Below are positions 3-22,488 of a DNA stretch of 64,000 nt, in pieces. The DNA is from Clostridiales bacterium (GTDB taxonomy: Bacteria > Acidobacteriota > Aminicenantia > Aminicenantales > UBA8522): the NCBI GenBank assembly GCA_029907205.1, contig JARYMI010000016.1, positions 959 to 64,958 on the forward strand, read 5' to 3'. The stretch's first letter is position 1, and each line of letters starts with the position of its first letter. The translations under genes and the position numbers were made by a program. The notes under the pieces are model-generated. The model was given only the letters and a program-made list of their open reading frames with translations. It was not told the origin of the DNA and did not search any database.

Positions 3-221
3 GGGTATTTCGACAACGCTCTGGCCAAAATTTTTTCTCTGGCTTTGTTAAGAGAAGCGAAAGTCATCGCTTATACCTATTACCCAAAAAGACAGACCAA
101 CCTTTATGCCTCTACCCTCGGCAGTACGGCGCTATTCGATGAAAAACACATCGAAGATTTGCTCCCCACCCTGAAGAGCGGTTTCTACTATCTCTGGCTG
201 CCCCAATTCGCCAGCGATTGA
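3..221 (+). CDS. 3' fragment of a gene running off the window edge, unknown product. Its stop codon abuts the first repeat end.
   Basis: Frame 3 is open from the window start to TGA at 219-221 (72 codons). No recognisable motif. Confidence 0.3.
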   Translation, partial: GYFDNALAKIFSLALLREAKVIAYTYYPKRQTNLYASTLGSTALFDEKHIEDLLPTLKSGFYYLWLPQFASD

Positions 222-248
222 AAATTGGGGACAGCATACGTAACCACC
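221..248 (+). repeat. TIR-like repeat end, left orientation (aaaattggggacagcatacgtaaccacc)
   Basis: Matches the consensus shared with 9025-9050, 18418-18446, 22321-22351 and 12998-13024. Its inverted partner is at 2066-2093. Confidence 0.75.
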
Positions 249-482
249 TTAATTTCTCTTATTCTCTTGGCTGGATAACGCCCGCGATATATTAAGAACG
301 TTATATTAAAAAAAGGTCGACGCCCATTTTTCTTGACACGCGAGAAGAGGCAGGGATAGAATTTTCCTCCGAGTGATAAGACGTCGACTGTGCGAGTCTC
401 TTAAGAAAGACGCTAAATCTGTTATCATTTCCCGTACAGTCTCAATCCAATTTCGATATAACTACTCCGGGGAGGGGAAGTT

Positions 483-2030
483 ATGCGAACCCATGCTAAG
501 CATGACCGTTGCTGTAGAGCCGTTTACTGGGTTTTGCTTTTTTTTCTGACTTTAAGCGCGATCGCGTGCGCGAAGGCGGTAGAGGAGAAAAAGCTGAGGA
601 TTGCCGTGGCCACGTTTTCCCACGAAACCTGCACCTTCTGTCCCGACTCCACGACTGTTGAAGATTGGGAGTATTATGGGCCGCCCACGCGCGACATCAT
701 CAAGGCCGACAGCGGCTACATCGGCGGGTTTAGGGCAGCCTGCGAAGAATACGGCGACGTCGATCTCGTCGGGATTCTTTCCCCCCGTGGTTCCCGCGGC
801 GGCTCGTCGGGGAGCTGGATCACCCGGGAAGCTTTCGACAAATACGCCGGCCTCATCGTCGAAGACCTGAAGAAACAGGGTCCTTTTGACGGCGTCTTTC
901 TGGCTCTCCACGGCGCTATGGCCGTCAGTGGCATCCCAAAGCCCGAAGCAGAGCTGGCGCGCCGGGTGAGGGAGGCCGTGGGCAATGTTCCCATCATGAT
1001 CACCTTTGACCTCCATGCGAACGAAGACGAGGAGATCGCTGAAGCGGCTGATGCTGTCTTCATCATCAAGCGATACCCTCACTACGACACGACTCTAACC
1101 GGAGAGACTGCCGCGAGAGTGATGATCCAGACCCTGCGCGGCAGGTACAAGCCTACGATGGCGGTCAGAAAGCCGGGGGTCATCACGCCCAGCGTTTTTC
1201 AGGGCACGGGGACTTCGCCAGCCATGGAGATCATGGAGAGGGCTCGCATCTGGGAATGCGAGCATCCGGGGGCTCATGTCTCGGTCGCCTTCGGTTTTGC
1301 CTATGCGGATGTCCCGGACGCAGGCGCTGCGGTCGTCGTCGTCACCAATAATGACCAAGCTCTGGCCGAAAGGATCGCAGACGACATGTCCGATTACATC
1401 TGGCGGCTCAGGCATATGTTTGCCGGGAAAAAGCTTCCCCAGACGGAAGAGGGAGTAAAGCTGGCTATTACTGCAGCCCAAGAAGGAAAGACACCGGTTA
1501 TTGTCGCTGACCACAGCGACAGGACAGGCGGCTCGACGTATATCCTTGAAGAGCTCATTCGTCAAGGTGCCAGGAATTTCTGCGTCGCCACGCTGCGCGA
1601 TGAGAGGGCTCTCAAAGAAATCAAGGCGCGCTATAAGATGGGAGATCCCGTGTCTATCGCCGTTGGCGGGTGGACGGACAAATTCGCCGGCAAGCCAATA
1701 AAAATTGATGGCAAAATAGAATTCCTTGGCCAACTCGGCCGCGAAACCATAGCCGTCATCCTGTTTGGCGCCAACAACCGCGTCATCCTGACTCCTCAGC
1801 TCATGCAGGTCACTGACACGAGCATATTCGAGGTCCTTGGCCTCGACGCCAAAGCTCTGGATATCATCGTTCTCAAGTCACGCGTCCACTTCCGGAGAGG
1901 CTTTGCCGACACAGGCCTGGCTGGAGCCATCATCGAAGTCGACGCGCCAGGCTGGGGGCCGGCCGACCTAACCGTGCTCCCCTACCAAAACATCCCCAAG
2001 GATATCTACCCTGTTTATAAGAAAGACTGA
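483..2030 (+). CDS. M81-family metallopeptidase, microcystinase MlrC-like (DUF1485 N-terminus), secreted
   Basis: N-terminal signal-like hydrophobic segment. The RIAVATFSHETCTF motif is typical of the MlrC/DUF1485 N-domain. 515 aa. Good RBS (ggagggg) upstream of ATG. Confidence 0.65.
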   Translation: MRTHAKHDRCCRAVYWVLLFFLTLSAIACAKAVEEKKLRIAVATFSHETCTFCPDSTTVEDWEYYGPPTRDIIKADSGYIGGFRAACEEYGDVDLVGILSPRGSRGGSSGSWITREAFDKYAGLIVEDLKKQGPFDGVFLALHGAMAVSGIPKPEAELARRVREAVGNVPIMITFDLHANEDEEIAEAADAVFIIKRYPHYDTTLTGETAARVMIQTLRGRYKPTMAVRKPGVITPSVFQGTGTSPAMEIMERARIWECEHPGAHVSVAFGFAYADVPDAGAAVVVVTNNDQALAERIADDMSDYIWRLRHMFAGKKLPQTEEGVKLAITAAQEGKTPVIVADHSDRTGGSTYILEELIRQGARNFCVATLRDERALKEIKARYKMGDPVSIAVGGWTDKFAGKPIKIDGKIEFLGQLGRETIAVILFGANNRVILTPQLMQVTDTSIFEVLGLDAKALDIIVLKSRVHFRRGFADTGLAGAIIEVDAPGWGPADLTVLPYQNIPKDIYPVYKKD

Positions 2031-2065
2031 CCGTGCCCGCTCTTCGGTAATAAAATGGAGTTTAG

Positions 2066-2093
2066 TGCATTACGTATGGCGTCCCCATTTTAA
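2066..2093 (-). repeat. TIR-like repeat end, right orientation (reverse complement taaaatggggacgccatacgtaatgcac)
   Basis: Inverted copy of the 221-248 repeat. It contains the outward ATG at 2076 followed by GCGTCCCCA and then a stop, a vestigial version of the MASPIL start seen at 22468. Confidence 0.7.
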
Positions 2094-2105
2094 AGAGGAG
2101 GAAGG

Positions 2106-3650
2106 ATGAAACAAGTGCAAAAGAAAAGAAACAGAGGTTTTTGGGCTCTTGTTTTTTTGCTCGTATTGACGCTCCTTCTGCCGTCATTGAGTGCGGTTGA
2201 GAAGGCCAAAAAAATTGAAAAAGAAAAGAAATTTGTCCTCGACTGGCTGAGCCAGCCGGAGACGGTAGAAAAATTCGGGCAAATCTCAGACGCCATCTGG
2301 TCCTACGCCGAGCTCGGCCTCCAGGAATTCCGGTCCTCCAAGCTTCTGGCTGACACGCTCGAGCAGGCCGGCTTCAAGGTAGAGCGTGGACTGGCTGGAA
2401 TGCCCACGTGCTTCGTGGCTTCCTACGGCTCTGAGAAGCCTGTCATCGGCATCCTGGGTGAATTCGATGCTCTGCCCATGCTCTCCCAGAAAGGCCGGGT
2501 CCCGCGCCAGGACCCGCTCGTGGATGGCGCTCCCGGGCACGGCTGCGGACATAACGCGATGGGTACCGCCGCGGCTGCGGCCGCCATCGCCGTTAAGGAA
2601 ACGATCGAGAAATTCGGGCTCAAGGGAACGGTCAAGATGTTCGGCTCTCCGGCCGAGGAGACGCTCATCAGCCGTCCCTTCATGGTCAGGGCAGGTCTTT
2701 TTAACGACGTCGATGTCGTCATCGACAACCACAGCAGCAGCGATTTCGGGACGGATTACGGCGTCAGCGGGAACGCCCTTTTTTCCGCAATTTTCACCTT
2801 CAAGGGCAAGACTTCCCACGGCGCATCAGCCTGGGCTGGAAGGAGCGCCCTCGACGCAGTGGAAATCATGAATATTTCGACCAACTATCTCAGGGAACAT
2901 CTTAACCTCGCCCACCGCCTCCACTATGTCATCATCGAGGGCGGCGAAGCGCCCAACGTCGTCCCGGACAGAGCCAGCGTCTGGTATTACGTGCGGAACA
3001 GCGACGATCGCGTCGAGGAAACGTACGAGAAGGTCCTCAACTGCGCCAAGGCGGCAGCCCTGGCAACGGGGACGGAACTTCAAAAAATCAGGGTTCTGAG
3101 CGCCGTCCATCAGCGTCATGCCAACAAGGCGCTGGCCGAGCTCTTCCAGAAGAATATCGACCTCGTGGGAATGCCAGGGTGGACCGAGGAAGAGCATGCT
3201 TTTGCCAAGACCCTGCAAAAAGAGCTCGGTGAAGAAGAAAAAGGGATGCCCACAGACCTCAGGCCGCTCCGCGAGCCCTGGCCTGTATCCATAGGCGGAG
3301 GCTCCTCGGATGTGGGCGATGTCTCTCTCGTTGCGCCTTTAGCCACAATCAGGTTCCCTGGCCAGGTGCCCGGCGGTATCGGCCATCACTGGTCTTCTGT
3401 GGCTTCGAACTTCGGCTCGACAGCCTGGAAGGGGCTCAACGCGGGGGCCAAGGCCATGGCTGCTTCGGCCGTCGACCTCTTGACAAAGCCCAAGGAGCTC
3501 AAGAGAATTCGGGATGAGTTTGAAGCTTATGCGAAAGAGCATCCCTACAAACCTTTCCTGCCGGCCGATGCCCAGCCGCCGCTCGACCTGAACGAAGAGC
3601 TGATGAAGAAATGGCGCCCGATGCTCGAGCAAATCTTTAATAAAGATTAA
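2106..3650 (+). CDS. M20-family amidohydrolase/peptidase (AbgB-like, M20D), secreted
   Basis: Signal peptide. GHGCGHN and a long Ala-run metal-binding region typical of M20D amidohydrolases. Strong RBS aagaggagg upstream. 514 aa. Confidence 0.7.
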   Translation: MKQVQKKRNRGFWALVFLLVLTLLLPSLSAVEKAKKIEKEKKFVLDWLSQPETVEKFGQISDAIWSYAELGLQEFRSSKLLADTLEQAGFKVERGLAGMPTCFVASYGSEKPVIGILGEFDALPMLSQKGRVPRQDPLVDGAPGHGCGHNAMGTAAAAAAIAVKETIEKFGLKGTVKMFGSPAEETLISRPFMVRAGLFNDVDVVIDNHSSSDFGTDYGVSGNALFSAIFTFKGKTSHGASAWAGRSALDAVEIMNISTNYLREHLNLAHRLHYVIIEGGEAPNVVPDRASVWYYVRNSDDRVEETYEKVLNCAKAAALATGTELQKIRVLSAVHQRHANKALAELFQKNIDLVGMPGWTEEEHAFAKTLQKELGEEEKGMPTDLRPLREPWPVSIGGGSSDVGDVSLVAPLATIRFPGQVPGGIGHHWSSVASNFGSTAWKGLNAGAKAMAASAVDLLTKPKELKRIRDEFEAYAKEHPYKPFLPADAQPPLDLNEELMKKWRPMLEQIFNKD

Positions 3651-3788
3651 GCTCCCGACAGCGGCACTTTTCCGCCAGTGCGGCAGCACGATCTTCTCAT
3701 GACCAAGAATGTATGAAAATTTTTTGCCACGGACTTCAAAATTATATGTGACTGAAGATGCGATTTCTAATACAGTTCTTATGTTGGC

Positions 3789-5168
3789 TCAGAATCGAAG
3801 GATGAGTTTTGTCGTCGTGAAAAAGATCAAAAGACCGGTGATATCGACGATTGTGGTCAGCGCGGGGCTGGCCACTACAGCGGGGTCAAACTTGAGCCTG
3901 GCTGCGGCCAGCGGCAAGACGGCTCCTATCAGGGTAGAGCTTATCACTTGAAGAGCGAGCGCAATGCTTACGGCTAGGGCCACTGTCCAGAGCGAAATGG
4001 CCCCCGGCATGGCGGATTTCCCGCTGAAGATAAGAACCCGGCTGAAGGCGACCGCTGCCAGCAAAAGGCCGAGCAGAAGGGAAACCTGAATCTCTTTGAA
4101 AACGACTCTTAGAGCATCTTTCCCGGAAACTTCTTTCAGAGCCAGGGCGCGGACAACGAGAGTGGCTGACTGGCTTCCCGTGTTACCGCCCGTATCGGCG
4201 AGCATGGGCATGAACGTGGCCAGAATAGCGAACTGAAGGAGCAGCCCTTCAAAGCTCTGAACGATGTAGCCCGAGACAAACCCGAGCAGAGCCAAAGCTA
4301 AGATCCACAGCGATCTGTTTCTGAAATGATCCCAGGCTGAAGTTCTCAGGTAAGCTCGGGCTTCGTGGCGCCCGGCGATGGCCATGAACTTCTCCATGTC
4401 CTCGGTGTGCTCCTGGGTGACGATGTCGAAAGCATCATCATGGGTGATAATCCCGACGAGCGTTCTTTGACTGTTGACAACGGGCAAGGCGATGAGATCG
4501 TATTTCTGGATTTTCCGCGCTGCTTCTTCCTGGTCATCCGTCACCCAGGCAAAGGCAACATCCTTATTCATGATGTCGCGGATGCGAGCTTCGGGCCGCG
4601 CCAGAATGAGGTCTTTCAGAGAAATAAACCCGAGCAGTTCACGCTTCTGGTCTATCACATAGGCATAGTAGATTGTTTCCTTGTCCGGCGCCTCGAGACG
4701 CAGTTTCGCGATGGCATCGCCAGCCGTTAATTCTGGCGTGAGAGTCGCGTACTCTGAAGTCATGACAGCTCCGGCCGTGCCCTCCGGATAGGAAGCAAGC
4801 CTTCTTATGTCTTCTCTTTCCGCTTGAGCCAGGGCCGGAAGGATCGTCTCCTGTTTTTCTTTGGGCATATTCTTGAACAAATCAACCCTGTCGTCTGATG
4901 ACATGTCTGCAAACAGCCGGGCTAAGTCGTCGCGCTTCATAACCTCGGTCATGTCGACCTGAATATCTCTCTCCAGATGGCTGAAAATTTCAGATTGCAG
5001 AGGGTGTGGAGCTTGGCGCAAAACTTCCCAGGCTTCTCGGGGAGTCAGCGCCGAAATAAAATCGGCGATGACGCTGGGATGCCCCGACTGACAGAAAAGG
5101 CGCAGCTCCTCAGTATTCCCTGTGGCAATGGCTTCTCGCAGTTCCGGGACGAGGAGGGATATTTTCAC
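3789..5168 (-). CDS. mgtE: Magnesium transporter MgtE
   Basis: N-terminal MgtE_N region, tandem CBS-like region and a 5-TM C-terminal domain with the GNTGSQSATL-type motif. 459 aa. Confidence 0.85.
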   Translation of the reverse strand: MKISLLVPELREAIATGNTEELRLFCQSGHPSVIADFISALTPREAWEVLRQAPHPLQSEIFSHLERDIQVDMTEVMKRDDLARLFADMSSDDRVDLFKNMPKEKQETILPALAQAEREDIRRLASYPEGTAGAVMTSEYATLTPELTAGDAIAKLRLEAPDKETIYYAYVIDQKRELLGFISLKDLILARPEARIRDIMNKDVAFAWVTDDQEEAARKIQKYDLIALPVVNSQRTLVGIITHDDAFDIVTQEHTEDMEKFMAIAGRHEARAYLRTSAWDHFRNRSLWILALALLGFVSGYIVQSFEGLLLQFAILATFMPMLADTGGNTGSQSATLVVRALALKEVSGKDALRVVFKEIQVSLLLGLLLAAVAFSRVLIFSGKSAMPGAISLWTVALAVSIALALQVISSTLIGAVLPLAAARLKFDPAVVASPALTTIVDITGLLIFFTTTKLILRF

Positions 5169-5661
5169 GGCTCACCTCCCTTGGACTGCTCCGGGCTCGC
5201 AGCCGGGAGTGAACCGAAAGGTCAAGCGGCCTGAAAGTTATACCGGTTCACGCCGCTGGCTGCTGCGCACAGCCGTTGCAGCCCGCCTGGTCTTATCCAC
5301 AGCATCAAAAGCCGCCGCTCAGGCGATTTGAAGCACCATGGACTATCAGAATCACTCATGATCGCTCATCCGTTAGCATGAGTTTCTTATACATCTTGTC
5401 CTTTGTTCCGTCAAGAGAAAAAGCCGAGAAAAAGTTGACTGCGGGGCACAATTCTTACCATAGGTCAAGAGCCGACGGTCTCTCACCTGATCGCTGAGCC
5501 AGCTCAGCAGAAGATGAACTTGTCGGATTCTGGTAGAGCTATTTGGCCTAATTGACATTAACCCTCAGCGACACGGAAAAGATGACTTGCTTCGGCTGTC
5601 CATCAACTTTGACAGGAGCTTGATTTGAAGGCAATCTTGATTAAAAATAGATAACGAAAAA

Positions 5662-6606
5662 GTGCTTTCAGGTCCAGAGAGGAGATCAGCCATGCTGAGA
5701 AGATACGAGATTATCAACAACAAGATCGAGGAGACCGCGAACGACAAGAGCCCGATCATGATGTTCATCAACCCCGACGACAAGGAGAAACGTCAGCTCA
5801 TCGATCAATACGGGGTAGACGAGCACACGCTCGCTTCTGCCCTTGACCCTGATGAGCTCGCCCGGCTCGAATGCGAACCCAATCATATCGCTCTCGTCTT
5901 CAAACGCCCCAAGAATTATTCCGGGAAAGACCAACTTCTTTTCAAAGCCTCAACCCTGGGCATTTTTTTCTTTGGCGATTTTCTGATCATCGTCATGGGC
6001 GAAGACACGAATCTTTTCGAAGGAAAGCCCTTCGTCAAGGTGGGTTCGCCCCGCGAGGTCCTGCTCAAGCTCATCTACCGGTCGATCTTCCATTTTCTCG
6101 AGCACCTCAAGGTCATCAACATGATCTCGGACGAAGTGGAACAGAAGATCAACCGGGCCATGGAAAACCGCTTCCTGATCAACCTGTTCACTCTGCAGAA
6201 GAGCCTTGTTTACTACCAGAACGCCATCCATGCCAACGGCGTGCTCATCGAGAAGATCCGGCACAACTCTTCGAGGATCGGGTTCACGACCGAGGAGATT
6301 GAACTTCTCGAAGACATCCTCATCGAGAACAGCCAGTGCTATCGCCAGGCGGAGGTCTATTCCAACATCCTGGCCAGCTTGATGGACGCCCGGGCTTCGA
6401 TCGTCAGCAACAACATCAACGTCCTGGTCAAAACCCTGAACATCATCACAATCGCTATCATGGTGCCGACTCTCGTCGTCTCGGCTTTCTCGATGAACGT
6501 CCGGATCCCGCTGTCAGAGCTTTACTCGGCCTTCTGGATCATCTTGGGGATGGGAGGGTTGGCGATGGTCGGGTTTCTCCTCTTCTGGAAACTCCGCAAG
6601 TGGTGA
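5662..6606 (+). CDS. CorA-family divalent cation transporter (variant FSMN instead of YGMN motif)
   Basis: Long cytosolic N-domain plus two C-terminal TM helices with an SMNV motif between them where canonical CorA has GMN. 314 aa. Confidence 0.6.
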   Translation: MLSGPERRSAMLRRYEIINNKIEETANDKSPIMMFINPDDKEKRQLIDQYGVDEHTLASALDPDELARLECEPNHIALVFKRPKNYSGKDQLLFKASTLGIFFFGDFLIIVMGEDTNLFEGKPFVKVGSPREVLLKLIYRSIFHFLEHLKVINMISDEVEQKINRAMENRFLINLFTLQKSLVYYQNAIHANGVLIEKIRHNSSRIGFTTEEIELLEDILIENSQCYRQAEVYSNILASLMDARASIVSNNINVLVKTLNIITIAIMVPTLVVSAFSMNVRIPLSELYSAFWIILGMGGLAMVGFLLFWKLRKW

Positions 6607-6637
6607 TGCCGGTGGGGCTCAAGTTCCTCCCTAAAAA

Positions 6638-7138
6638 ATGCCGCTTTTAATGAAATGGCTCTTGCTTTTGTCATGCCTGGCGATCCTCTCCCTGGCCCTG
6701 AATTTTTTGAGCTACCGCCTGCTCAAGAAACGGATCCTAAAGAAACGGAAGTGGGATCTCAACATCTGTTGCGGCAAGACGGATGGCGGAGGCATTAACG
6801 CGGATATTATCCATCACACGAAGTTACCCCGTTTTGTTCTGATCGACTCTATCTATTCTTTGCCTTTTAAGGACCATCAGTTCGAGACCGTTCTCTGTTC
6901 GCACACTCTTGAGCACGTGGAAGATCCAGTCGGCTTTTACAAGGAACTGACCCGGGTTGGGAAGCAGATCACGATCGTTCTTCCGCCCCTTTGGGACTTT
7001 GCCGGGGTTCTTAATGTTTTCGAGCATCGCTGGATTTTTTTGACCCTTAAAAAAGTGCACACCCGTCTCCCAGCCCATGTCCGCCTGCCCCTCTCCAGAA
7101 CCGTCCAGCGCATCTTGAGACAGCGGATTCGCGCCTAA
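6638..7138 (+). CDS. Class I SAM-dependent methyltransferase domain protein (Methyltransf_11-like) with N-terminal TM segment
   Basis: NICCGKTDGGGINADI (SAM-binding glycine loop) and LEHVEDP motif. 166 aa. Confidence 0.45.
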   Translation: MPLLMKWLLLLSCLAILSLALNFLSYRLLKKRILKKRKWDLNICCGKTDGGGINADIIHHTKLPRFVLIDSIYSLPFKDHQFETVLCSHTLEHVEDPVGFYKELTRVGKQITIVLPPLWDFAGVLNVFEHRWIFLTLKKVHTRLPAHVRLPLSRTVQRILRQRIRA

Positions 7139-7250
7139 TCTAACCTGACGGGCTTGACTGCCCAAAGATTGGCCATCCCTAACCAGGGCATAACCGCCGT
7201 GCGGGCCGTGACCAAGAAGAAATGAAAGTGAAGGCATACAGGAAAGTTCT

Positions 7251-8375: not shown

Positions 8376-8467
8376 CCTTTTGCTGAATAAAGAATAAGAA
8401 ATGAGCCGATGGATGTCAAGAGAATTGTGGCGAATCTAACGGATCTAAAAGGTCCCGAACTGCCGTT

Positions 8468-8875: not shown

Positions 8876-8995
8876 TCGTTACTCCTTGATAAGGGTCTTC
8901 TCATACAAAACAAATTCGCCCTCTTAACCTACTAACTCTATCGAAATAGTATAAATTTTTCAACCTCAAATAGAGCAAATCAGGGAAAGCTTATC

Positions 8996-9050
8996 AATAA
9001 TAATTGGGTAATAATTGGGGTAATAATTGGGGACAGCTTACATAATTACC
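8996..9050 (+). repeat. Tandem 11-bp microrepeat (gtaataattgg x3) merging into a TIR-like repeat end (left orientation)
   Basis: taattgggtaataattggggtaataattggggacagcttacataattacc. The last 26 bp match the repeat-end consensus. Confidence 0.75.
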
Positions 9051-9160
9051 CTATTTTTTTCAAACGCCGTTTCTTTGTATTATAATTCTCTCTTTCCTGA
9101 TAAAGGAAAAAAATGGAACCCGCAGCCTGTCGAAGAAAGCGTGCCGGGAGGGAGAAATCA

Positions 9161-9700
9161 ATGGCCAGGGCAAACGACTTAGAAGAAATGTTCCGCAAAC
9201 ACGGCTTCACCGATTTCCGCTGGCTTGACCCAAACGAGATCGTGGTCGCGCAGTGGGCCCGGATGAAGTGCCTTTATGGGTGCAACGAGTACGGAAAGAC
9301 AGCTTCCTGCCCGCCCAACGTCCCTTCTGTCGCAGAGTGCGAACGCTTTTTCCGGGAATACCGTCGAGCTGTCGTGTTCCATTTCGAAAAGAAAGTCGCC
9401 AAGCCGGAGGACCGGTTCGCCTGGACGCGAAAAACAAACCTCAAGCTCCTCAAGCTCGAGCAGGAGGTTTTCATATCGGGGTATGAAAAGGCCTTCCTTC
9501 TTTTCATGGATAGCTGCAACATCTGCGCCGAGTGCACCGGGAAGCGCGAGACCTGCAAGCAGCCGAAAATGGCTCGGCCGACGCCCGAGGCCATGGCCGT
9601 CGATGTCTTCGCGACGATTAAACAGATCGGCTATCCGATCGAGGTCCTTTCGAGCTATGAGCAGCCGATGAACCGCTATGCCTTCCTGCTTATAGAATAG
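9161..9700 (+). CDS. DUF2284-like predicted metal-binding protein (Cys-rich)
   Basis: CLYGCNEYGKTASCPP plus a second CxxC cluster. Start moved to the ATG at 9161, which has a gggaggga RBS. About 179 aa. Confidence 0.45.
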   Translation: MARANDLEEMFRKHGFTDFRWLDPNEIVVAQWARMKCLYGCNEYGKTASCPPNVPSVAECERFFREYRRAVVFHFEKKVAKPEDRFAWTRKTNLKLLKLEQEVFISGYEKAFLLFMDSCNICAECTGKRETCKQPKMARPTPEAMAVDVFATIKQIGYPIEVLSSYEQPMNRYAFLLIE

Positions 9701-9888
9701 GCAACGCCGGTCACGCCGGTTCTCCTCCTTGGCAATGAGAATGTCCGTGACCCCGGTATTTATCTCCTCCTAGACTTCGCCCCGGGGCGAGAAATAGACC
9801 ATGTCCATCTCATCGCCAGCTCCGAAACGCCCGAAGCTCTTATCATCCTAAAAATAAAAAAGTAAGAAAACCGGCTGCCGCAGATTAA

Positions 9889-9931
9889 GTGAATTACGTA
9901 TGCTGTCCCCCTGAATGCTGAATGCTGAATG
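9889..9931 (-). repeat. TIR-like repeat end (right orientation) followed by tandem 7-bp repeat (ctgaatg x3)
   Basis: gtgaattacgtatgctgtcccc is the reverse complement of the consensus left end. It pairs with 9025-9050 to bracket the DUF2284 gene. Confidence 0.75.
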
Positions 9932-10019
9932 TCTCTTGACACTCCGGATAAAAATAGGCTAAGGTTGGGTGCGATCTTCAGCGGCGGGTTGCTCTCGTCC
10001 CCCAAGAAGGAGGACTGCA

Positions 10020-10492
10020 TGAAAAAAGCTTTGAAAATCCTGGTTTTCATTTTGTTGTGCGAGCTGGCGGGTATCATCGGCTCCGTTTTTACGACGCCTT
10101 CGATCCCCGGGTGGTACGCAGGACTGTCCAAACCGCCGTTCAACCCGCCCAACTGGGTGTTTGCGCCGGTCTGGACTATCCTTTACGCCCTGATGGGACT
10201 CTCCGCTTATCTCGTTTTTGAAAAAGGCCCGGGGAGAAGCGACGTCAGGAAAGCCCTGGCGGTTTTCGCCGGGCAGCTTGTCCTCAACGCGCTCTGGTCG
10301 ATCGTCTTCTTTGGGGCGCACATGATCCTCGGCGCCGTCGTCGTCATCATCCTTTTATGGGGAATGATTCTCGCGTCGATCCTGCTGTTCTCGAAGATTT
10401 CCAGGGCGGCGGCGTATCTGCTCATTCCCTATATGATGTGGGTCAGCTTCGCGACGATCCTGAATATTTCCCTATACGTTCTCAACCGTTGA
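10020..10492 (+). CDS. tspO: TspO/MBR family tryptophan-rich sensory protein
   Basis: 157 aa, five hydrophobic helices, Trp-rich motifs (PGWYAGL, PPNWVFAPVWTILY). Start at the internal ATG with an aaggagg RBS. Confidence 0.8.
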
Positions 10493-10499
10493 GCCGCTG

Positions 10500-11135: not shown

Positions 11136-11341
11136 AGCTTGCCGCCTCCGGACGGGCCACAGAACCGCCCGTCGTCCTGAGAATTCTTTATGATGGAGTG
11201 TCCGAGCGCCAATTTCGCCTCAAATCATCGACGGGAATGATAAATCGGGGCCTCACGGATGTCAAATTGAGCTGAAAGGTGCTTCATTTTGTGAATGAGT
11301 CAAGCTAAGAAAGAACCGGTCGCCGATTAAGATAGGAATGC

Positions 11342-12826: not shown

Positions 12827-12997
12827 GACGAACCTTCCCTCTGATCCGATCGCGGGGCTGACGCTCCTTCATCCCGGGACCGGAGCGCCTCAATGATATA
12901 AAATAGCAGGAGATATTTCAACGCCGATCGCAGGGGGAGCATATACAAATCGCCTGTGTTTCTGATACATTATATGAACAAAATCCATGAGTAAAGT

Positions 12998-13088
12998 AAA
13001 AGTGGGGAGAGCATACTCATTTACCTTATTTTTTGGAGAAATTGTGGAGAAATAGGGTAAACGAGTATGCTGTACCCAATTTTGAAGG
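12998..13088. mobile_element. Roughly 90-bp miniature inverted-repeat element (both TIR-like ends, about 30 bp of internal sequence)
   Basis: Left end aaagtggggagagcatactcatttacc (12998-13024). Right end ggtaaacgagtatgctgtacccaattttgaagg (13056-13088), which is the reverse complement of a diverged left end. Confidence 0.65.
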
Positions 13089-14251: not shown

Positions 14252-14270
14252 AATGGAAGGTGAACGCAAG

Positions 14271-15110: not shown

Positions 15111-16291
15111 AGATTCTCTTCAAGCTGGCTCTCAGGAACCTGCTGGGCGCAGGGCTTCGAACCTGGCTCAACATCGCTGTCCTCTCCTTCGCTTTCGTGG
15201 CCATCATCTGGACCCAGGGTTTTTACCGGGGAATGAGCCGGCAGGCGATTCAAGCGTTGACCGACGCAGAGTACGGGGGTGGTCAGTACTGGCATGAACA
15301 ATACGACCCTTTTAACCCGCTGACACTCGACGATGCCCATGGACGTGTGCCGGAACCTTTACAGAAGCTCATCGAGGAGCGCAAGGCTACGGCTGTTCTT
15401 ATCATCCAGGGAACGCTCTATCCCCATGGCCGGTTCCTGCCTGTAACGGTCAGAGGAATCGACCCTGCTCAGGGAGTCCTCCTCTTTCCTTCGGAATTCT
15501 TGGAGACTGGTGACGGGAACGACGCAGAAATCCCCGCGATCATCGGGAGCCGCATGGCCCGGTCGACCGGCCTCAAGGTCGGCGACACCGTGACCCTGCG
15601 CTGGCGGGACGCGCGAGGCGCCTTCGATGCCCGCAATATCCGCATCGTCCAGGTCATGAGCACGACCGTCCAGTCCATCGACCAGGGGCAAATCTGGCTA
15701 TCCCTCGACACTCTCCGCTCGCTCGCCGGTATGGAGGGGGAAGCTACCCTAATTACGCTGGCAAAAGGAACACCTTTCTTGGAGGAAATCCCGGGCTGGT
15801 CCTACAAGAGCCCGGACGTACTGCTCAAGGACATTCATGACCTCGTCCGGAGCAAGACGCTCGGCGCGACGATTCTCTATATTATCCTCATCCTCCTGGC
15901 CATGCTGGCCATCTTTGACACCCAGGTGCTGTCCATCTTCCGCCGGAGAAAAGAAATGGGAACCTTGATGGCCATGGGCATGACCCGGCTGAAAATCATC
16001 CAGCTTTTCACCATCGAGGGCGCCTTGCATTCGGTGCTTGCGGCCCTTGTCGCGGCTGTCTACGGGATTCCCCTGCTCACGCTTTCTGCCCGGAGCGGGT
16101 GGGCCATGCCCCAGGCCGTAGATAGCTACGGGTATGCCATCGGCGAGAGAATCTTTCCCGTTTACAGCGCCGGGCTGGTCATTGGGACGACGGTCCTGGT
16201 CATGTTAGTCACGACTGTGGTCAGTTTCCTCCCGACGCGAAAGATATCCCGGCTCAAGCCCACCGACGCTTTGCGCGGGAGGATGCCATGA
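15107..16291 (+). CDS. ABC transporter permease, FtsX/LolC-like (4 TM plus large periplasmic loop)
   Basis: N-terminal TM, long periplasmic domain, C-terminal 3-TM FtsX-like block. Translationally coupled to the upstream ATPase. Confidence 0.7.
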   Translation: MKILFKLALRNLLGAGLRTWLNIAVLSFAFVAIIWTQGFYRGMSRQAIQALTDAEYGGGQYWHEQYDPFNPLTLDDAHGRVPEPLQKLIEERKATAVLIIQGTLYPHGRFLPVTVRGIDPAQGVLLFPSEFLETGDGNDAEIPAIIGSRMARSTGLKVGDTVTLRWRDARGAFDARNIRIVQVMSTTVQSIDQGQIWLSLDTLRSLAGMEGEATLITLAKGTPFLEEIPGWSYKSPDVLLKDIHDLVRSKTLGATILYIILILLAMLAIFDTQVLSIFRRRKEMGTLMAMGMTRLKIIQLFTIEGALHSVLAALVAAVYGIPLLTLSARSGWAMPQAVDSYGYAIGERIFPVYSAGLVIGTTVLVMLVTTVVSFLPTRKISRLKPTDALRGRMP

Positions 16292-17565
16292 TCAAGTTCC
16301 TCCTTAAGGGCATTCTCCGCGACCGTTCCCGGAGCCTTTTTCCCTTTCTGACCGTGACTATCGGCGTGATGCTCACCGTCTTTCTCTATTGCTATATCAA
16401 GGGTGCGGAGAGCAATTTCATCGAATCAAGTGCCCGTTTCTCCACAGGCCATGTGAAAATCATGTCCCGCGCTTATGCCGCCGAGGCTGACCAGATTCCC
16501 AATGACCTGGCTTATGTTGGCGTCGAATCCCTGCTCCTCGAGCTGAGGCAGGAGTTTCCGGATATGGTCTGGACTCCGAGAATCCGGTTTGGCGGGCTTT
16601 TAGACATCCCGGACGAAGCCGGGGAGACGCGCTCGCAGGGCACGGTGGCCGGGCTGGCCGTTGACCTTTTCGGGAGCGATAGCCCCGAGCGTCTCATCAT
16701 CAACATCGAGAAGGCCGTGGTGAGCGGGCATCTTCCGCGAAAACAGGGGGAAATCCTCATCAGTGCCGACCTCGCCACGACTCTCGATGTGCGGCCGGGA
16801 GACACAGCGACACTCATCGGCTCGACGATGCACGGCAGCATGGCCATAACGAATTTCACGGTCGCCGGCACAATCCGGTTCGGCGTCACGGCCATGGACC
16901 GGGGCGCCGTCCTGGCCGATATCCACGATATCCAGGAAGCCCTTGACATGGAGGATGCGGCCGGTGAAATCCTGGGGTTTTACAGAGGTTTTATTTATAA
17001 GGATAAGGACGCTGAAGATATGGCCAGCCGGTTCAATGCTCGGCACCACGGGCAGGGGGAGAGCGACGAATTCCTCCCGGTCATGGTGACGCTCAAGAAC
17101 CAGAGCGGCCTTGCCGACCTTCTGGCCATGATGGGGATGTTCTCGTCGGTCGTCGTCCTCATCTTCGTCGCCGCGATGTCCATCGTCCTCTGGAACGCCG
17201 GCCTGATGGGCTCGCTCCGGAGATACGGCGAGATCGGCGTGCGGCTGGCCATGGGCGAGGACAAGGGCCATCTCTACCGTTCCCTGATCGCCGAATCCAT
17301 GCTGATCGCCGTTTTCGGAACGATCGCCGGCACGACCGTGGGCGTGGCCATCGCCTACTACATCCAGGTCCACGGCATTGACATCAGTTCGTTCATGAAG
17401 AGCTCCTCCCTGATGGTCACCGATGTCCTGAGGGCCCAGGTGACGCCGGTGAGCTTCGTCATCGGGTTTCTTCCGGGCCTTGGCGCGACTTTCATCGGCA
17501 CCTCTATCTCAGGAATCGGCATCTACAGGCGGAAGACATCGACCCTGATGAAGGAGCTCGAATGA
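16288..17565 (+). CDS. ABC transporter permease, FtsX/LolE-like (second permease)
   Basis: Same architecture as the previous gene. Start overlaps the previous stop (ATGA). Confidence 0.7.
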   Translation: MIKFLLKGILRDRSRSLFPFLTVTIGVMLTVFLYCYIKGAESNFIESSARFSTGHVKIMSRAYAAEADQIPNDLAYVGVESLLLELRQEFPDMVWTPRIRFGGLLDIPDEAGETRSQGTVAGLAVDLFGSDSPERLIINIEKAVVSGHLPRKQGEILISADLATTLDVRPGDTATLIGSTMHGSMAITNFTVAGTIRFGVTAMDRGAVLADIHDIQEALDMEDAAGEILGFYRGFIYKDKDAEDMASRFNARHHGQGESDEFLPVMVTLKNQSGLADLLAMMGMFSSVVVLIFVAAMSIVLWNAGLMGSLRRYGEIGVRLAMGEDKGHLYRSLIAESMLIAVFGTIAGTTVGVAIAYYIQVHGIDISSFMKSSSLMVTDVLRAQVTPVSFVIGFLPGLGATFIGTSISGIGIYRRKTSTLMKELE

Positions 17566-18416
17566 TGAATCAAGGCAGGAAAAAGGCCGCTCTTGCGGAA
17601 AGGGCTAACTTTATTATTTCTATATTATTTATATATTCTATAGGAATTATAGGAAAATTGGAATCAAGCTTTTGCCTGGTTCTGGAAGGAGAGTCGGCGG
17701 CAGGGAGCAGGCAAACCTCCCTGGATAGCCAGCAAACCCCTTCGGGCGAGTGGATCTTGGGCCGCGTCGATGAAAACATCATCTCGGGGAATAAAATCAT
17801 TGCCTCTCGCATGATCATCCACGGCCGACGCGGGAGCCGCTCTATCGAGGCGAAATCGTGGATACAGGGCGAAGACAAGGCCTTCACGGAGTACCTGGCG
17901 CCAGCCCAGGAGCGGGGAACGAAGATGCTCAAGCTCGGCGACCAGTTATGGACCTACTCGCCCTCGACCGACCGGACCATCCTCATATCGGGCCACATGC
18001 TGCGGCAGTCGGTCATGGGATCAGACCTTTCCTACGAGGACATGATGGAAGAACGGAGGCTCCTCAAAATGTACGAGGCAGCGGTCATCGGTGAAGAAAC
18101 CGTGCTCGACTCTACCTGCTGGGTGTTAGAGCTTAGGGCGAAGACGCCGGACGTCGCCTATCCCTCGAGGAAAATCTGGGTGGATAAGGAGCGGTTCGTC
18201 GTCCTCAGGGAAGAGCGCTATGCCAGGAGCGGCACGCTCCTCAAGACGACCGAAGTCAAGAGCATCGTCAAGGCCCAGGGGCGATGGATTCCAGAGAGGG
18301 TCGTCTACAAGGACGCGCTCAAGGCCGGAGACGGGACGGAATTCATCGTGGATGCGATCGAGTTCGACGCCTCCATCCCTGATTATCTTTTCACCAAGGC
18401 CTCCTTGCGGAAATGA
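17562..18416 (+). CDS. LolA-like outer-membrane lipoprotein-sorting/carrier family protein
   Basis: Follows the two FtsX-like permeases. Periplasmic beta-rich roughly 250 aa body resembling LolA/DUF4292-like proteins. The exact start is uncertain because of an AT-rich N-terminal region. Confidence 0.45.
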   Translation: MMNQGRKKAALAERANFIISILFIYSIGIIGKLESSFCLVLEGESAAGSRQTSLDSQQTPSGEWILGRVDENIISGNKIIASRMIIHGRRGSRSIEAKSWIQGEDKAFTEYLAPAQERGTKMLKLGDQLWTYSPSTDRTILISGHMLRQSVMGSDLSYEDMMEERRLLKMYEAAVIGEETVLDSTCWVLELRAKTPDVAYPSRKIWVDKERFVVLREERYARSGTLLKTTEVKSIVKAQGRWIPERVVYKDALKAGDGTEFIVDAIEFDASIPDYLFTKASLRK

Positions 18417-18417
18417 C

Positions 18418-18546
18418 CAATTGGGGGACAGCATACGTAATTACCAAAATTCCGGTAGCGGAATCCAACAAAAGGCAGGCACCGCCAAAAAGACGCCGGT
18501 GCTTGCTTCAACTGATCAACAGATCGGCAGTCTGCGGCGAAAAAAA
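18418..18546 (+). repeat. Partial copy of the miniature element: left TIR-like end plus conserved internal sequence, no right end
   Basis: ccaattgggggacagcatacgtaattacc followed by ...aagacgccggtgcttgcttcaactgatcaacagatcggcagtctgcggcg. This is about 90% identical to the internal part of 22321-22488. Confidence 0.8.
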
Positions 18547-21500
18547 ATGAAAAAGAGGCTGAAGAAGGCTTTCCTCGTCCTAGGAAGCATCCTGCTGTTT
18601 TTCCTGCTGGTCATCGTCATCGCTTCCCTGCTTTTTTTCTACCGGAAGCCCCTCATCAAGAGAATCGTAGAAAAACAGGTTGAAAAGCAGACGGGAATCC
18701 GTGTCGCCGTTGGAACTCTGGATTATTGGCTGTTTCCGCTGAGGATTGAAGCTGGCTCAGTCATGTTCAAAACGAAACTAGAAGAAACAGAAGTCGATGT
18801 TTTTGTCGGGAGGCTTATACTCAGAGGCGATATCCATCGCATCAGGAAAAAGGCGAGACCCTATTTTGAATCAATCGAGGCGGAGGGCGTCCGGATTATC
18901 TCTTATGTGGGGAAGGCCCGAAAAAAGATCGCCGTCGAAGACATCCTCCATGGCTTATCTTCAGGGATGAGCTACGTCAGAAAAATAGGCCTTAGAAACT
19001 CCTCTTTTAAGTTCATTTTTTCCAAACAAGAACTATCTTTTCAAGAAGTGGAGATCACTCTGTCATCATCCTGGAATCAAGAATCTATTGCCTATACCCT
19101 GCTCTGCCAGAAGGCCCAGGGAATTTTTCAATCCAAATCAGCTCAATTCCAAAACGCGATTCAGGCGTCCGGGACCCTGTTCCCCGGGGAAAAACCGGCC
19201 ATAAAGGGCGGGTTTGTTTTCACATCGAACCGTCTCGCTTACGCTGCCAAAGAAGAATATTTCGAAAAAATCACCGTGAATTTTGATGGAGCATTCGACT
19301 GGAGCAAAGAGGAATTTATCTTTCAATCGCTACAGGTCGAAATCCCGTCCTTCACGAGCCTCACGGGATCCCTTGATATTATTCTCAAAGACGAGTTGAC
19401 CTTTTCCATTCGCCCCCGGCTCCAAGTTGAAGACCTCGGCCGATTTTATCACCTAGTTAAAGACCGTTTGCCCCGGGAGTTCGAGGGGCTGGAGCTTCAA
19501 GGCAGCGCACTTTTTGAAGGAGAGGCCCGCATAAAGCCTCCAGATCCCGGGAAAAAGCTAAGCCTCAGCGGGCTGGTTGTGCTGAACCCTTCCCGTATCA
19601 AATTTCGGACCGCCGAATATCAACTTGACTGTCCCGTTTCAGGGGATTTCAGGATCGCCAGATTCCCGGACGATCCTGAGATATCCGGCCGCCTGAAGAT
19701 TTCCGATGGCTCTTTAGCTGGAAAAGCTGTGGAAGCCCATGGAATAGGACTCGATATTCCCTTTGTTTATGACCATAAAGAATCAATACTCAACATCGCG
19801 AGTTTAAAAGCCGGCGCTTTTCGCCTGGATATTCCTTACACGAAAATAAAAACAAACACTCCTAGGTTTTTTGGGCAGGGATTTCTGGATCTTAAGAAAA
19901 AGAGGCTCCATATTTTGCGGGCAAATGTCGAGGTGGACCCTTTCCCGGTGTTTTACATCAAAGCGCAGGCCGGTCTCAGCCCTCAGGATGCCAAGTCGTT
20001 TTCCGTTAAGAGTTCACAAATCAGCTTCCAGTCAGTGATGGATTTTTTCTCTTTCGCCGTTCCAAAGAAAGTCATGGATTGGGAACCTGACGGGCGGTTG
20101 AACGTTCAAATCGAAGCTCGCCATCCTTCCGGAGAAAAGGAAAAGGGCTGGCACGTAGCGGCAGAACTTGAATCCCTCGACGTGAAATTCCATGACCCTT
20201 CCTTCACGGCGGCCGGAGAAGCTCTCCGCGCGAAGCTTACCCTGGAGGGAACCCTCCGTCGTCCTTTGAAAGAAATTCTGTTCAGGGCAAGGATGGAGCT
20301 TTACCGGGGGGAATCTCTCTGGAAGGACTTTTATGTGGACTGGAGCAGGATGCCTCTTCAGAGTACTGTGATCGGCCGGTTTGACATTCCGCAGAAAAAA
20401 CTGACAGACTTCTCCCTGGGACTGGCCATTCCTGGTTTCGGCGAGATTGATGCAACAGGCCGGCTCGATTTACAGGAACCCCGTTTCGCTGATCTAAAAG
20501 TCACGGCCTCAGCGTTTCAACTCGCCGCTCTGTCCGCTTTCTTCAACCAGAGAAGAGCAGCCGGCCAAACGCAGGGGGAATGGAAAGGCGAGGCGGAGAG
20601 CCGCGTCAATGCCAGGTTCGATAAAAACGCTCTCTCCATCCTTGGATTTCTCAGGGTGAAGGATACGTCATGGACCGATGAAGCCAGGAATTTGGCAATA
20701 CAGGGAATAGAGGCGCATCTCCCTGTGCATTACGATTCTAAACCCAGATACGGAGAGGCGGATATCCCTTCTCCGGAAGACGGATATCTCCATGTGCAAA
20801 AAATTCGTGCTCCCTATCTGGACCTGTCGTCGCTGAGGCTGGACATCAAAGGCAGAAGAAACGGCTACTCGATCCAGCCTTTCGCGCTCGAGATATTCGG
20901 CGAGGAGGCCAGGGTGGGCGAGATATCTATCGAGTACCGGTCCAACCCGTCGGATTTTAAGGCTCTGACTTCGTTTTCCTGGATGGACGGAGATCTTTCC
21001 CAGGCTCCGTTTTCCTCCCGGGATTTCCAGCTCGAAGGAAAGTTATCCCTGGATCTTCCTCGTGTCGCAATCTCGCCGGACCTCGTGTCGACCGAGGGCG
21101 TAGCCAGGGCAAACGCATTCGGAGGAACGATCGCCATCAAAAACATCCAGATGGAAAGACCGTTCACCAAAAACAGGACGATTTCCTGCGATGTCGCGTT
21201 AGCGGAACTGGACCTTGAAAAAATCACGGATTCGATCCCGTTCGGCCGCGTCACGGGAATCATCAACGGAGAAATCCAGGACCTTGCCCTGTCCTACGGG
21301 CAGCCCGAACGCTTTGACATCCGTATCGAATCGGAAAGGAGAAAGGGAGTTCAGCAGAGATTCAGCGTGAAGGCCACAGACGATCTGACCATTCTCGGCA
21401 CGGGCGAAAGAACGGCCTTGTCTTCCCGGAGCGGATGGACCCGATTCGTCCGAGAATTCAGATATGACAAAATCGGGATCGCGTGTTCCTTGAAAAACGA

Positions 21501-21669
21501 CATCTTCTCTCTTCAGGGAACGATCTGGAGGAACGGAGTCGAATATCTCGTCAGAGGAACCGGCCTTTTCGCCATTAACGTGGTGAACAAACAGGCCCGG
21601 AATCAAATCCGTTTCAAGGATATGCTGAACCGGCTCCAGAGAATAGGCCAATCAAAACAATCCCCATGA
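18547..21669 (+). CDS. ydbH: AsmA-family/YdbH-like large inner-membrane-anchored protein (putative inter-membrane lipid transport)
   Basis: N-terminal signal-anchor MKKRLKKAFLVLGSILLFFLLVIV, then about 1000 aa of beta-rich sequence. It lies immediately upstream of a YnbE/YdbL-like gene, as in the E. coli ydbH-ynbE-ydbL operon. The ORF-track start at 18220 reads through the repeat and is rejected. Confidence 0.6.
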   Translation: MKKRLKKAFLVLGSILLFFLLVIVIASLLFFYRKPLIKRIVEKQVEKQTGIRVAVGTLDYWLFPLRIEAGSVMFKTKLEETEVDVFVGRLILRGDIHRIRKKARPYFESIEAEGVRIISYVGKARKKIAVEDILHGLSSGMSYVRKIGLRNSSFKFIFSKQELSFQEVEITLSSSWNQESIAYTLLCQKAQGIFQSKSAQFQNAIQASGTLFPGEKPAIKGGFVFTSNRLAYAAKEEYFEKITVNFDGAFDWSKEEFIFQSLQVEIPSFTSLTGSLDIILKDELTFSIRPRLQVEDLGRFYHLVKDRLPREFEGLELQGSALFEGEARIKPPDPGKKLSLSGLVVLNPSRIKFRTAEYQLDCPVSGDFRIARFPDDPEISGRLKISDGSLAGKAVEAHGIGLDIPFVYDHKESILNIASLKAGAFRLDIPYTKIKTNTPRFFGQGFLDLKKKRLHILRANVEVDPFPVFYIKAQAGLSPQDAKSFSVKSSQISFQSVMDFFSFAVPKKVMDWEPDGRLNVQIEARHPSGEKEKGWHVAAELESLDVKFHDPSFTAAGEALRAKLTLEGTLRRPLKEILFRARMELYRGESLWKDFYVDWSRMPLQSTVIGRFDIPQKKLTDFSLGLAIPGFGEIDATGRLDLQEPRFADLKVTASAFQLAALSAFFNQRRAAGQTQGEWKGEAESRVNARFDKNALSILGFLRVKDTSWTDEARNLAIQGIEAHLPVHYDSKPRYGEADIPSPEDGYLHVQKIRAPYLDLSSLRLDIKGRRNGYSIQPFALEIFGEEARVGEISIEYRSNPSDFKALTSFSWMDGDLSQAPFSSRDFQLEGKLSLDLPRVAISPDLVSTEGVARANAFGGTIAIKNIQMERPFTKNRTISCDVALAELDLEKITDSIPFGRVTGIINGEIQDLALSYGQPERFDIRIESERRKGVQQRFSVKATDDLTILGTGERTALSSRSGWTRFVREFRYDKIGIACSLKNDIFSLQGTIWRNGVEYLVRGTGLFAINVVNKQARNQIRFKDMLNRLQRIGQSKQSP

Positions 21670-21736
21670 CCGGGTTCCGTGATTTTGCTATACTAATAAA
21701 ATGAGAAAAATGAGCTTTTCAGGAAGGGAGGTCGCC

Positions 21737-22312
21737 ATGCGAAAATTTTCGCCTGTGTTCACAATTTTCATCATCCTGTTTGTTCTGGCCATTGCCTGCG
21801 TGACCATCAACATCTATTTTCCTGAGGCGGCCGTGCAAAAAACGGCGGAGGAGATCGTGGACGAGGTGAGAAAATCCGGGCAGGAAGGCAAAAAAAAGGA
21901 GGAAAAGAGTGTGAGCCAATCCGCCTTCTCTCTCATTCCCGCTGTGTATGCACAGGAAGAGGAAACGGTCTCCACCCCGAAAATCCGCGCCCTGAAGCAA
22001 TCCCTGAAGGACAAAGAACCCCTCCTCAAGCCCTTCTTCGATCAGGGCCATATCGGAGAAGCCAACAACGGGATGATCCAGATCCGCAGCGAGGAGGGCC
22101 TCTCCCTGAAGGATAAAGCGGAATTGAGGCGCCTGACGAAAGAAGTAAACAGCGAAAGGGAAACTCTGTACGCGGAGGTTGCCAAAGCGTTAAACATCGA
22201 AGAAAGCCAGGTTCCGAGGATACAGAAAATATTCGCCAGACGCTGGATCGAAAACAGCCCTCCCGGCTGGTGGATTCAAAACGATGACGGAGAATGGATC
22301 AGGAAACAATAA
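21737..22312 (+). CDS. Fused YnbE-like lipoprotein N-region plus YdbL (DUF1318) C-domain
   Basis: N-terminus LAIACVTINIYF resembles the YnbE lipoprotein core. C-terminus ...ENSPPGWWIQNDDGEWIRKQ matches the DUF1318/YdbL C-terminal signature. RBS gaagggagg present. Confidence 0.55.
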   Translation: MRKFSPVFTIFIILFVLAIACVTINIYFPEAAVQKTAEEIVDEVRKSGQEGKKKEEKSVSQSAFSLIPAVYAQEEETVSTPKIRALKQSLKDKEPLLKPFFDQGHIGEANNGMIQIRSEEGLSLKDKAELRRLTKEVNSERETLYAEVAKALNIEESQVPRIQKIFARRWIENSPPGWWIQNDDGEWIRKQ

Positions 22313-22320
22313 ACCTTCCA

Positions 22321-22488
22321 AATTGATCGGGTGACAGCATACATAATTACCAAATTTCCAAAAGAGAGATTCAACAAACGGTGGGCATCGCCAAGAAGAC
22401 GCCGGTGCTTGCTTCGACTGATCAACAGATCGGCAGTCTGCGGCGCAAAAAATTAAGGTAATTATGTATGGCGTCCCCAATTTTGAGG
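22321..22488. mobile_element. Complete roughly 168-bp miniature inverted-repeat element (MITE-like) with about 30-bp TIRs
   Basis: Left end aattgatcgggtgacagcatacataattacc (22321-22351). Right end ggtaattatgtatggcgtccccaattttgagg (22457-22488) is its reverse complement. The internal roughly 105 bp is shared with 18447-18546. Confidence 0.85.

Follow-up and report, generated by a model that had tools for sequence, protein, structure and literature searches.

The 64-kb stretch of contig JARYMI010000016.1 analysed here (the window, meaning the whole of this DNA) carries ordinary chromosomal genes of an anaerobe, with NrdD/NrdG, a tricorn-like protease, ABC transporters and peptidases represented among the open reading frames (ORFs) that have a Pfam match, and interspersed with these genes are nine copies of a short, oriented repeat. 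The copies are very probably the dispersed terminal inverted repeats (TIRs) of a TIRtron, present as gene-less derivatives that a TIR-associated tyrosine transposase (TIRYT) encoded elsewhere in the genome would have moved. A scan with a 22-nt core, allowing up to five mismatches, found nine copies and no more in the 64 kb, and a profile built from these nine units (nhmmer, all filters off) returned the identical nine with E values of 4e-10 to 2e-7. No further copies, diverged ones included, were found between 22.5 and 64 kb, the next nhmmer match in the window having an E value of 38. The 28-mer reported in a first-pass annotation of this DNA gave four matches at up to three mismatches, against none in 100 shuffles. 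The nine copies occupy seven sites (four solo units, two short convergent pairs and one half element), and both the positions claimed in that annotation and its placing of every copy between genes or at gene boundaries were borne out, since core scan and profile agree on the same nine and all seven sites are intergenic or at ORF boundaries. The features are listed below by window coordinates, with arms and units being putative TIRs; L083 and L012 are loci of a related genome (CAZKBY01) that is ~82% identical to the window at the nucleotide level in shared genes.

227, 9029, 13004, 18424 and 22330, plus strand: the plus-strand cores of the 22-nt core scan.
2065-2086, 9889-9910, 13056-13077 and 22457-22478, minus strand: the minus-strand cores of the same scan.
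221-256, plus strand: solo unit with core 227-248 (GGGGACAGCATACGTAACCACC), 5' of an M81 peptidase gene (483-2030); E 3.7e-10.
2057-2093, minus strand: solo unit with core 2065-2086, between the stop codon of the M81 peptidase gene and the ribosome-binding site and start (2106) of an M20 peptidase gene; E 1.8e-7.
8990-9028, plus strand: outer-end stutter, i.e. partial tandem duplicates of the outer end (aataattgggt / aataattggggt / aataatt-GGGGAC).
9023-9058, plus strand: solo unit with core 9029-9050, followed by a promoter-like site and a DUF2284 gene (9113-9700); E 5e-9.
9882-9915, minus strand: solo unit with core 9889-9910, 3' of the DUF2284 gene; an orthologous unit lies at L083 ~826-857.
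9911-9931, plus strand: CTGAATG, three times in tandem, against the outer end of unit 9882-9915.
9972-9973, no strand: empty site (ggtgc/gatc), at which the related genome has a 40-nt solo unit (L012 3123-3162).
12997-13084, no strand: short convergent pair with arms 12997-13033 (plus) and 13048-13084 (minus), cores 13004-13025 and 13056-13077.
18418-18546, plus strand: half element, made of a plus-strand unit (18418-18453) and ~100 nt of the spacer seen in 22352-22456, without a right arm.
22321-22488, no strand: complete convergent pair, with plus-strand arm 22325-22359, a 105-nt spacer (22352-22456) between the cores and minus-strand arm 22449-22485.
22468-23889, plus strand: 5'-truncated Ser/Thr kinase(-TPR) ORF abutting the outer end of the minus-strand arm and matching positions 124-253 only of the Pkinase profile.

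The repeat unit is about 36 nt long and reads AAAATT-GGGGACAGCATACGTAATTACC-TTAATTT, extending 6 nt outward of the GGGG (AAAATT) and ~8 nt inward of the core (TTAATTT). GGGG, which the first-pass annotation took for the terminus, is therefore internal: the aligned copies continue 6 nt beyond it, and two 97%-identical TIRtron copies on a single contig diverge 6 nt beyond GGGG, marking the element boundary at the end of the repeat and not at GGGG. Both short elements of that annotation, the complete 168-nt element at 22321-22488 and the mini-element of ~90 nt at 12997-13084, are genuine convergent pairs. The smaller one has a 30-nt spacer between its cores and a variant, ATACTC.TTTACC, common to both arms. 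Folded as single-stranded DNA the two pairs reach -27.6 kcal/mol (z -3.3) and -21.6 kcal/mol (z -8.6), respectively, giving long hairpins as expected of any inverted repeat. The half element stops at the probable ATG (~18549) of a DUF748 gene, and its likeness to the interior of the 168-nt element is real, albeit at 86% identity over 127 nt (18420-18546 against 22326-22452) and not the ~90% first given. Repeat and 105-nt spacer are thus present twice in the window, indicating that they were copied as a block. The spacer was also considered as a decayed transposase gene, and this was rejected when a TIRYT profile run against six-frame pieces of the window gave a best E value of 1.5. The rule that copies are always paired left then right is meaningful for the two short pairs only; the two long-range ones (227/2086, enclosing the M81 peptidase gene, and 9029/9910, enclosing the DUF2284 gene) are statistically indistinguishable from four solo units: at the other loci described below, pairs 300-3000 nt apart comprised nine in plus-minus and 21 in minus-plus order, i.e. 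no convergent bias.

The repeat is widespread. A scan of 185,579 species-representative genomes with the 19-nt core GGGGACRSCATACRTAATT found it, exact, in at least 116 loci, the genome labels of which span at least nine phyla. Labels among the matches listed include Aminicenantes/Acidobacteriota, Planctomycetota (Thermoguttaceae, Isosphaeraceae, Brocadiaceae), Desulfobacterales, Syntrophales, Geobacter, Myxococcales, Armatimonadota, Verrucomicrobiales, Ignavibacteriaceae, Chitinophagaceae, Nitrospiria and others. Across 145 exact instances conservation is limited to the core plus a few flanking bases, the outer 6-7 nt being lineage-dependent (e.g., gaattcc, gagtttc, aataatt). Carriage by phages was ruled out, as a single viral contig among 2.9 million has the exact core. 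One 19-mer match, at L057 (7121-7207), runs into the 3' acceptor end (GGGGACGCCA) of a tRNA-Glu gene; it is either a partial match arising by chance or a unit that inserted directly against the tRNA.

Arrangement of the copies follows rules. In the at least 116 loci, with 270 copies, neighbours no more than 300 nt apart are convergent (TAATT ends facing) in 59 cases, divergent in two and arranged head-to-tail in tandem in 42, in agreement with the single, dimeric or grouped organisation of TIRs described in PMC3733652. Spacers of close pairs measure 6-246 nt, with peaks at 37 and 82 nt. Single units are not palindromic, complementarity to their own flank (4.34) being negligibly above that to foreign flanks (4.12), and six window units folded no better than shuffles (z -1.4 to +1.5); on these two results the single unit was rejected as a REP (repetitive extragenic palindromic) hairpin, and the lack of folding fits the phrase "TIRs rather than secondary structures" in the same paper. 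Arm mismatches in three genomes are about equal within doublets (7.7-9.4) and between them (7.6-8.9), so that evolution of the doublet as a unit is unsupported. The outer end has a further peculiarity: 58 of 289 copies (~20%) have a shortened duplicate of the outer flank plus GGG just outside, against 2.9% for a control and 1% for the inner side. This stutter, which successive rounds of cutting and rejoining close to the outer end may have left, is seen at 8990-9028 and 9911-9931 of the window and at many loci (e.g., L002, L032, L050, L083).

A partner gene for these ends emerged from other genomes. Clustering of the ORFs over the core-bearing loci gave one family, present in 18 loci, and at L010 and L002 a gene of ~220 amino acids (aa) was found with a repeat copy on either side. 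By tblastn and a relaxed motif scan the same bracketing was observed in at least ten loci (L010, L066, L094, L002, L048, L031, L013, L032, L033, L058) with the phylum labels Planctomycetota, Thermodesulfobacteriota, Aminicenantes and Myxococcales. In these ten, one copy lies in gene orientation 40-90 nt upstream of the start, and an inverted copy lies within ~35 nt past the stop codon or overlaps the 3' end of the gene. Metagenomes scanned with the 22-mer GGGGACRSCATACRTAATTACC, an exact match to window copies 18424 and 22457-22478, gave 15 loci, two of which (L118, L131) have the gene with a copy at its 3' end. At L118 (394-1140) the inner end of the upstream copy abuts the -35 box of a promoter-like TTGACA-17-TAGAGT; the downstream copy contains the stop codon, TAA. 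Many Aminicenantes copies have TTGAC or TTTAC ~20 nt inward of the repeat. The form with a transposase between the same ends, which the first-pass annotation could only place elsewhere, thus exists in loci of other genomes, while its view of a non-autonomous family whose transposase is not in the window also stands: tblastn (best E 1.9) and the profile search of six-frame pieces (best E 1.5) revealed no TIRYT gene or fragment in the 64 kb, and no transposase domain was found among the 40 larger window ORFs scanned with Pfam.

The bracketed protein, of 220-240 aa, scores 49 bits against Pfam Y1_Tnp (cutoff 23) and has invariant residues N-H-V/T-H, LWQGRF, RYVE.NPV and WSSA, followed by a conserved tail, ..RTGRPLG..KPGPK. 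A search of the PDB with a single protein sequence had no match; a six-member profile alone reached E. coli TnpA-REP (4ER8, E 5.6e-9), with ISDra2 TnpA at only 0.02. To judge from its sequence, the product is an IS200-like Y1/HUH transposase. Contig CAWGIE010000031 (L032 590-2090, L013 2700-3610) has three tandem repeat units at each end of the TIRYT gene, a 510-nt tandem partial duplication of that gene and an identical gene copy ~9.5 kb off; at the sequence level the element there resembles an insertion sequence present in multiple copies, and not a domesticated gene present once. Two longer Y1 transposases (~300-320 aa, ~32-38% identical, with a C-terminal helix-turn-helix-like tail) occur at L100 (4266-5304) and L009 (7301-7729). 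A core copy with two mismatches lies ~75 nt upstream of the L100 gene, and at L009 the gene is not flanked, its nearest core copy being ~1.3 kb distant. At least two protein subgroups may thus have the core in common.

These features place the family in a class already described, though little studied, of which the window is a new example. Di Nocera, De Gregorio and Rocco (2013, BMC Genomics 14:522; PMC3733652) gave the name TIRYT to RAYT-like (REP-associated tyrosine transposase-like) genes with long TIRs and the name TIRtron to the corresponding units, and reported that many TIRs share GGGGWSAS and that moderately abundant families of dispersed TIRs occur as singles, dimers and groups. In Quentin et al. 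(2018; PMC6006769) TIRYTs form TnpA-Y1 subclass 2.1, distinguished by NHVH, W[EQ], Y[IV]ELNP and an SS tail; its members have a median length of 238 aa and lack REP hairpins. The NHVH, LWQGRF, RYVELNP and WSSA motifs of the bracketed protein match the subclass 2.1 table of PMC6006769, and over 219 aa it is 63% identical to Geobacter GSU2396, which Additional file 5 of PMC3733652 lists (as gsu 2396) among the TIRYTs. GGGGWSAS is exact in five of the nine window copies (GGGGACAG or GGGGAGAG) and one base off in the other four, the most frequent octamer across phyla being GGGGACAC. The opinion that this is not a described element therefore gives way to an assignment to the published TIRtron/TIRYT class, whose TIRs share this motif (PMC3733652, PMC6006769). 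The core sequence itself was not found in the literature searched, and the supplementary files of PMC3733652 hold no TIR sequences as text.

Comparison with the related genome provided further insight into the history of the units. At 9972/9973 the window is uninterrupted where L012 has its 40-nt unit, showing that a solo unit is polymorphic by itself. No target duplication accompanies this sole filled/empty site pair, and no direct repeats flank the pairs 12997-13084 and 22321-22488, so that the target-site duplications envisaged by the first-pass annotation are missing from all three. Polymorphism of a unit without duplication, pairs without direct repeats, and block copying fit what single-strand Y1 chemistry, and not DDE chemistry, would be expected to leave. 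Units shared by the two genomes are identical at 34/34 and ~30/30 positions over an 82% background. The outer end of one orthologous unit has CTGAATG three times in the window and CCCTGTGATA twice in the relative.

Synteny with L083 ends at 9913 and resumes at 22496 (compare L083 857-2406), both breakpoints lying at units. In L083 the DUF2284 gene and its downstream unit are followed by 0.9 kb, a second unit and a full-length Ser/Thr kinase gene. DUF2284 and kinase genes are separated by 1.5 kb in the related genome versus 12.6 kb in the window. Genes for TspO, an HATPase protein, a MacB-like ABC transporter, a LolA-like protein, DUF748 and DUF1318 lie within the window's 12.6 kb, and for L083 858-1742 tblastx found no counterpart in the window. 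The kinase ortholog in L083 (1859-3466) has a full kinase domain and an N-terminal zinc ribbon; the window gene is without its first 547 nt, and its listed ATG falls inside the unit. In the related genome TIR dimers stand on either side of the TspO gene, which seemingly is without ~175 nt found in the window (10173-10347).

All seven repeat sites of the window fall within its first 22.5 kb, leaving the other 41.5 kb without any (p ~7e-4 if placement were uniform), and rearrangement in comparison with the related genome likewise affects the repeat-rich part (1-22500, as against 22501-64000). Elsewhere the window has an unrelated 39-nt inverted repeat (53447-53485 / 53694-53732, 74% complementary, 208 nt apart) near a Memo-like gene. 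No tRNA genes were found in it, and a scan of the whole window against Rfam at the gathering threshold had no match, ruling out a described RNA family as the identity of the nine-copy repeat.

A mechanism may be proposed along the following lines. A TIRtron is a small element consisting of one TIRYT gene between two inverted repeat copies, its product being a predicted single-strand DNA endonuclease of the RAYT-like IS200 family (Y1/HUH, TnpA-Y1 subclass 2.1). Most likely, a TIRYT encoded elsewhere in this genome recognises the core GGGGAC..CATACRTAATT, and it would cut and rejoin single-stranded DNA near the outer end, so that units and two-armed elements would spread or be removed with no target-site duplications arising. 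Convergent pairs could form REPIN-like hairpins when the DNA is single-stranded. Several points weigh against this interpretation. The window has neither a TIRYT gene nor a fragment of one, and mobilisation in trans in this genome is an assumption; none of the ~13 examined loci with window-like flanks (AAAATT...ACC/CAC TTAATT), four of them from the closest relative, holds a TIRYT gene. At least two window units stand at orthologous places in a relative only ~82% identical, suggesting that the copies are old and may no longer move. The bracketed protein reaches 71 bits with the RAYT model of NCBIfam (REP_Tyr_transpos), under its curated cutoff of 80. Finally, no experiments on any TIRYT were found in the literature searched, in which the term itself occurs only in PMC3733652 and PMC6006769.

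Three other explanations deserve consideration. The first, which takes up the lead of the first-pass annotation, is a classical miniature inverted-repeat transposable element (MITE), an internally deleted DDE transposon of the Tn3 family (a "TIME") or another, moving by cut-and-paste or replicatively with target-site duplication. Tn3 has a DDE transposase of ~1000 aa and 38-bp inverted repeats starting with GGGG, and short, non-coding, intergenic elements with two inverted arms and GGGG near their ends do recall such a derivative. Yet the sole gene repeatedly bracketed by these ends is a predicted IS200-like Y1/HUH transposase (~220 aa, 220-240 aa over the family) and not a DDE enzyme, the repeat starts 6 nt outside GGGG, neither complete pair nor the filled/empty site has direct repeats, and solo units and head-to-tail arrays, which are not DDE products of a two-ended element, are common. 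A DDE origin is thus largely refuted, and is the least probable of the explanations considered. Canonical REP/REPIN sequences served by a single-copy, vertically inherited RAYT (groups 2/3 of Bertels; the E. coli and Pseudomonas type) come closer, given the REPIN-like convergent doublets and a RAYT-like protein whose best solved relative is E. coli TnpA-REP, but they too are improbable here: the single unit is non-palindromic with no GTAG or CGTC head in its consensus, the core is common to several phyla and not species-specific, the protein bears the signature of subclass 2.1 plus a C-terminal extension rather than that of 2.2 or 2.5, and its gene can occur in several copies, a single contig having near-identical duplicates.

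An element that selection has conserved as a protein-binding site or RNA structure (operator, terminator or mRNA stabiliser), immobile by itself, would account for the intergenic location of all copies, for cores identical at 34/34 and ~30/30 positions next to genes at ~82%, for the stable hairpins of the pairs with A/T runs outside, and for the promoter-like TTCAAA-16-TATAAT (9059-9086) that directly adjoins unit 9023-9058 upstream of the DUF2284 gene. It sits poorly with neighbour genes that are functionally unrelated and with copies found upstream and downstream of genes in both orientations. Rfam is empty, and a simple terminator scan, uninformative because of its 8-nt loop limit, does not flag the elements. 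It also leaves unexplained the bracketing of a transposase gene, the arrays, the unit-sized polymorphism and the copied block of repeat plus spacer. We therefore regard such an element as very improbable, slightly more so than the REP/REPIN alternative, although a secondary host role of the repeats is possible.

A bolder extension, to which we give an outside chance, is that the TIRYT repeat system is more than passive, its units acting as break-and-join points that move or delete host DNA. On this view the exactness of the 19-nt core over at least nine labelled phyla implies repeated horizontal spread or a very strong constraint imposed by an enzyme. The further basis is a break in synteny whose two ends coincide with units separated by 12.6 kb of other genes, the truncation of a kinase gene right at a unit, and the bracketing of single host genes (M81 peptidase and DUF2284 in the window, TspO in the relative); outer-end duplicates at ~20% of units would be expected if an enzyme cut just inside the outer end and rejoined repeatedly. 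Were this so, TIRYTs would actively rearrange genomes, cutting at a defined site, and could capture host genes. Independently of this extension, an "unknown MITE" becomes a classified element, and annotators can link GGGGAC..CATACRTAATT repeats in Aminicenantes, Planctomycetota, Desulfobacterota and other groups to a RAYT-like tyrosine transposase instead of Tn3. In this genome the units mark differences in gene order from a close relative and a destroyed kinase gene, and the cross-phylum 19-nt core, the boundary 6 nt outside GGGG and the outer-end stutter offer a concrete substrate for in-vitro work on TIRYTs.

Among known systems, MITEs, including Tn3-derived TIMEs, resemble the window elements in being small, non-coding and two-ended with inverted arms, in their dependence on a transposase in trans and in block copying of the unit, but differ in that here target-site duplication is absent, the partner enzyme is not of the DDE type, and solo ends and tandem arrays are frequent. 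IS200/IS605 elements (IS608, ISDra2) share the transposase superfamily (HUH plus catalytic Tyr), the expected single-strand chemistry and the absence of target duplication; their ends, however, are subterminal hairpins and not inverted repeats, and their transposase, of ~150 aa with a Y---Q motif, contrasts with the Y..LNP and 90-aa C-terminal tail of the bracketed protein. REPIN/RAYT systems (Bertels and Rainey 2011, PMC3116915; Nunvar 2010; Ton-Hoang 2012) comprise non-autonomous short repeats linked to a domesticated IS200-like tyrosine transposase, with hairpin-folding convergent doublets, intergenic location and no target duplication, whereas the units described here are non-palindromic, are without a GTAG head and have a cross-phylum, not species-specific, core.

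From TIRtron/TIRYT elements the window differs in having gene-less repeats only, and the published motif is 8 nt long, compared with a 19-nt core that is exact in at least 116 loci from many phyla; the outer-end partial duplicates, a -35 box adjoining the inner end and a stop codon within the repeat were not found in the text of the TIRtron papers, as far as it is available. Common to both are a Y1/HUH RAYT-like gene that has long inverted repeats, and not hairpin REPs, on its two sides (seen in at least ten loci plus L118 and L131, and not in the window), GGGGWSAS within the repeat, plain TIRs that do not fold on themselves and occur as singles, dimers and clusters, and a protein with NHVH, WQ, Y[IV]ELNP and WSS motifs that is 63% identical to gsu 2396.

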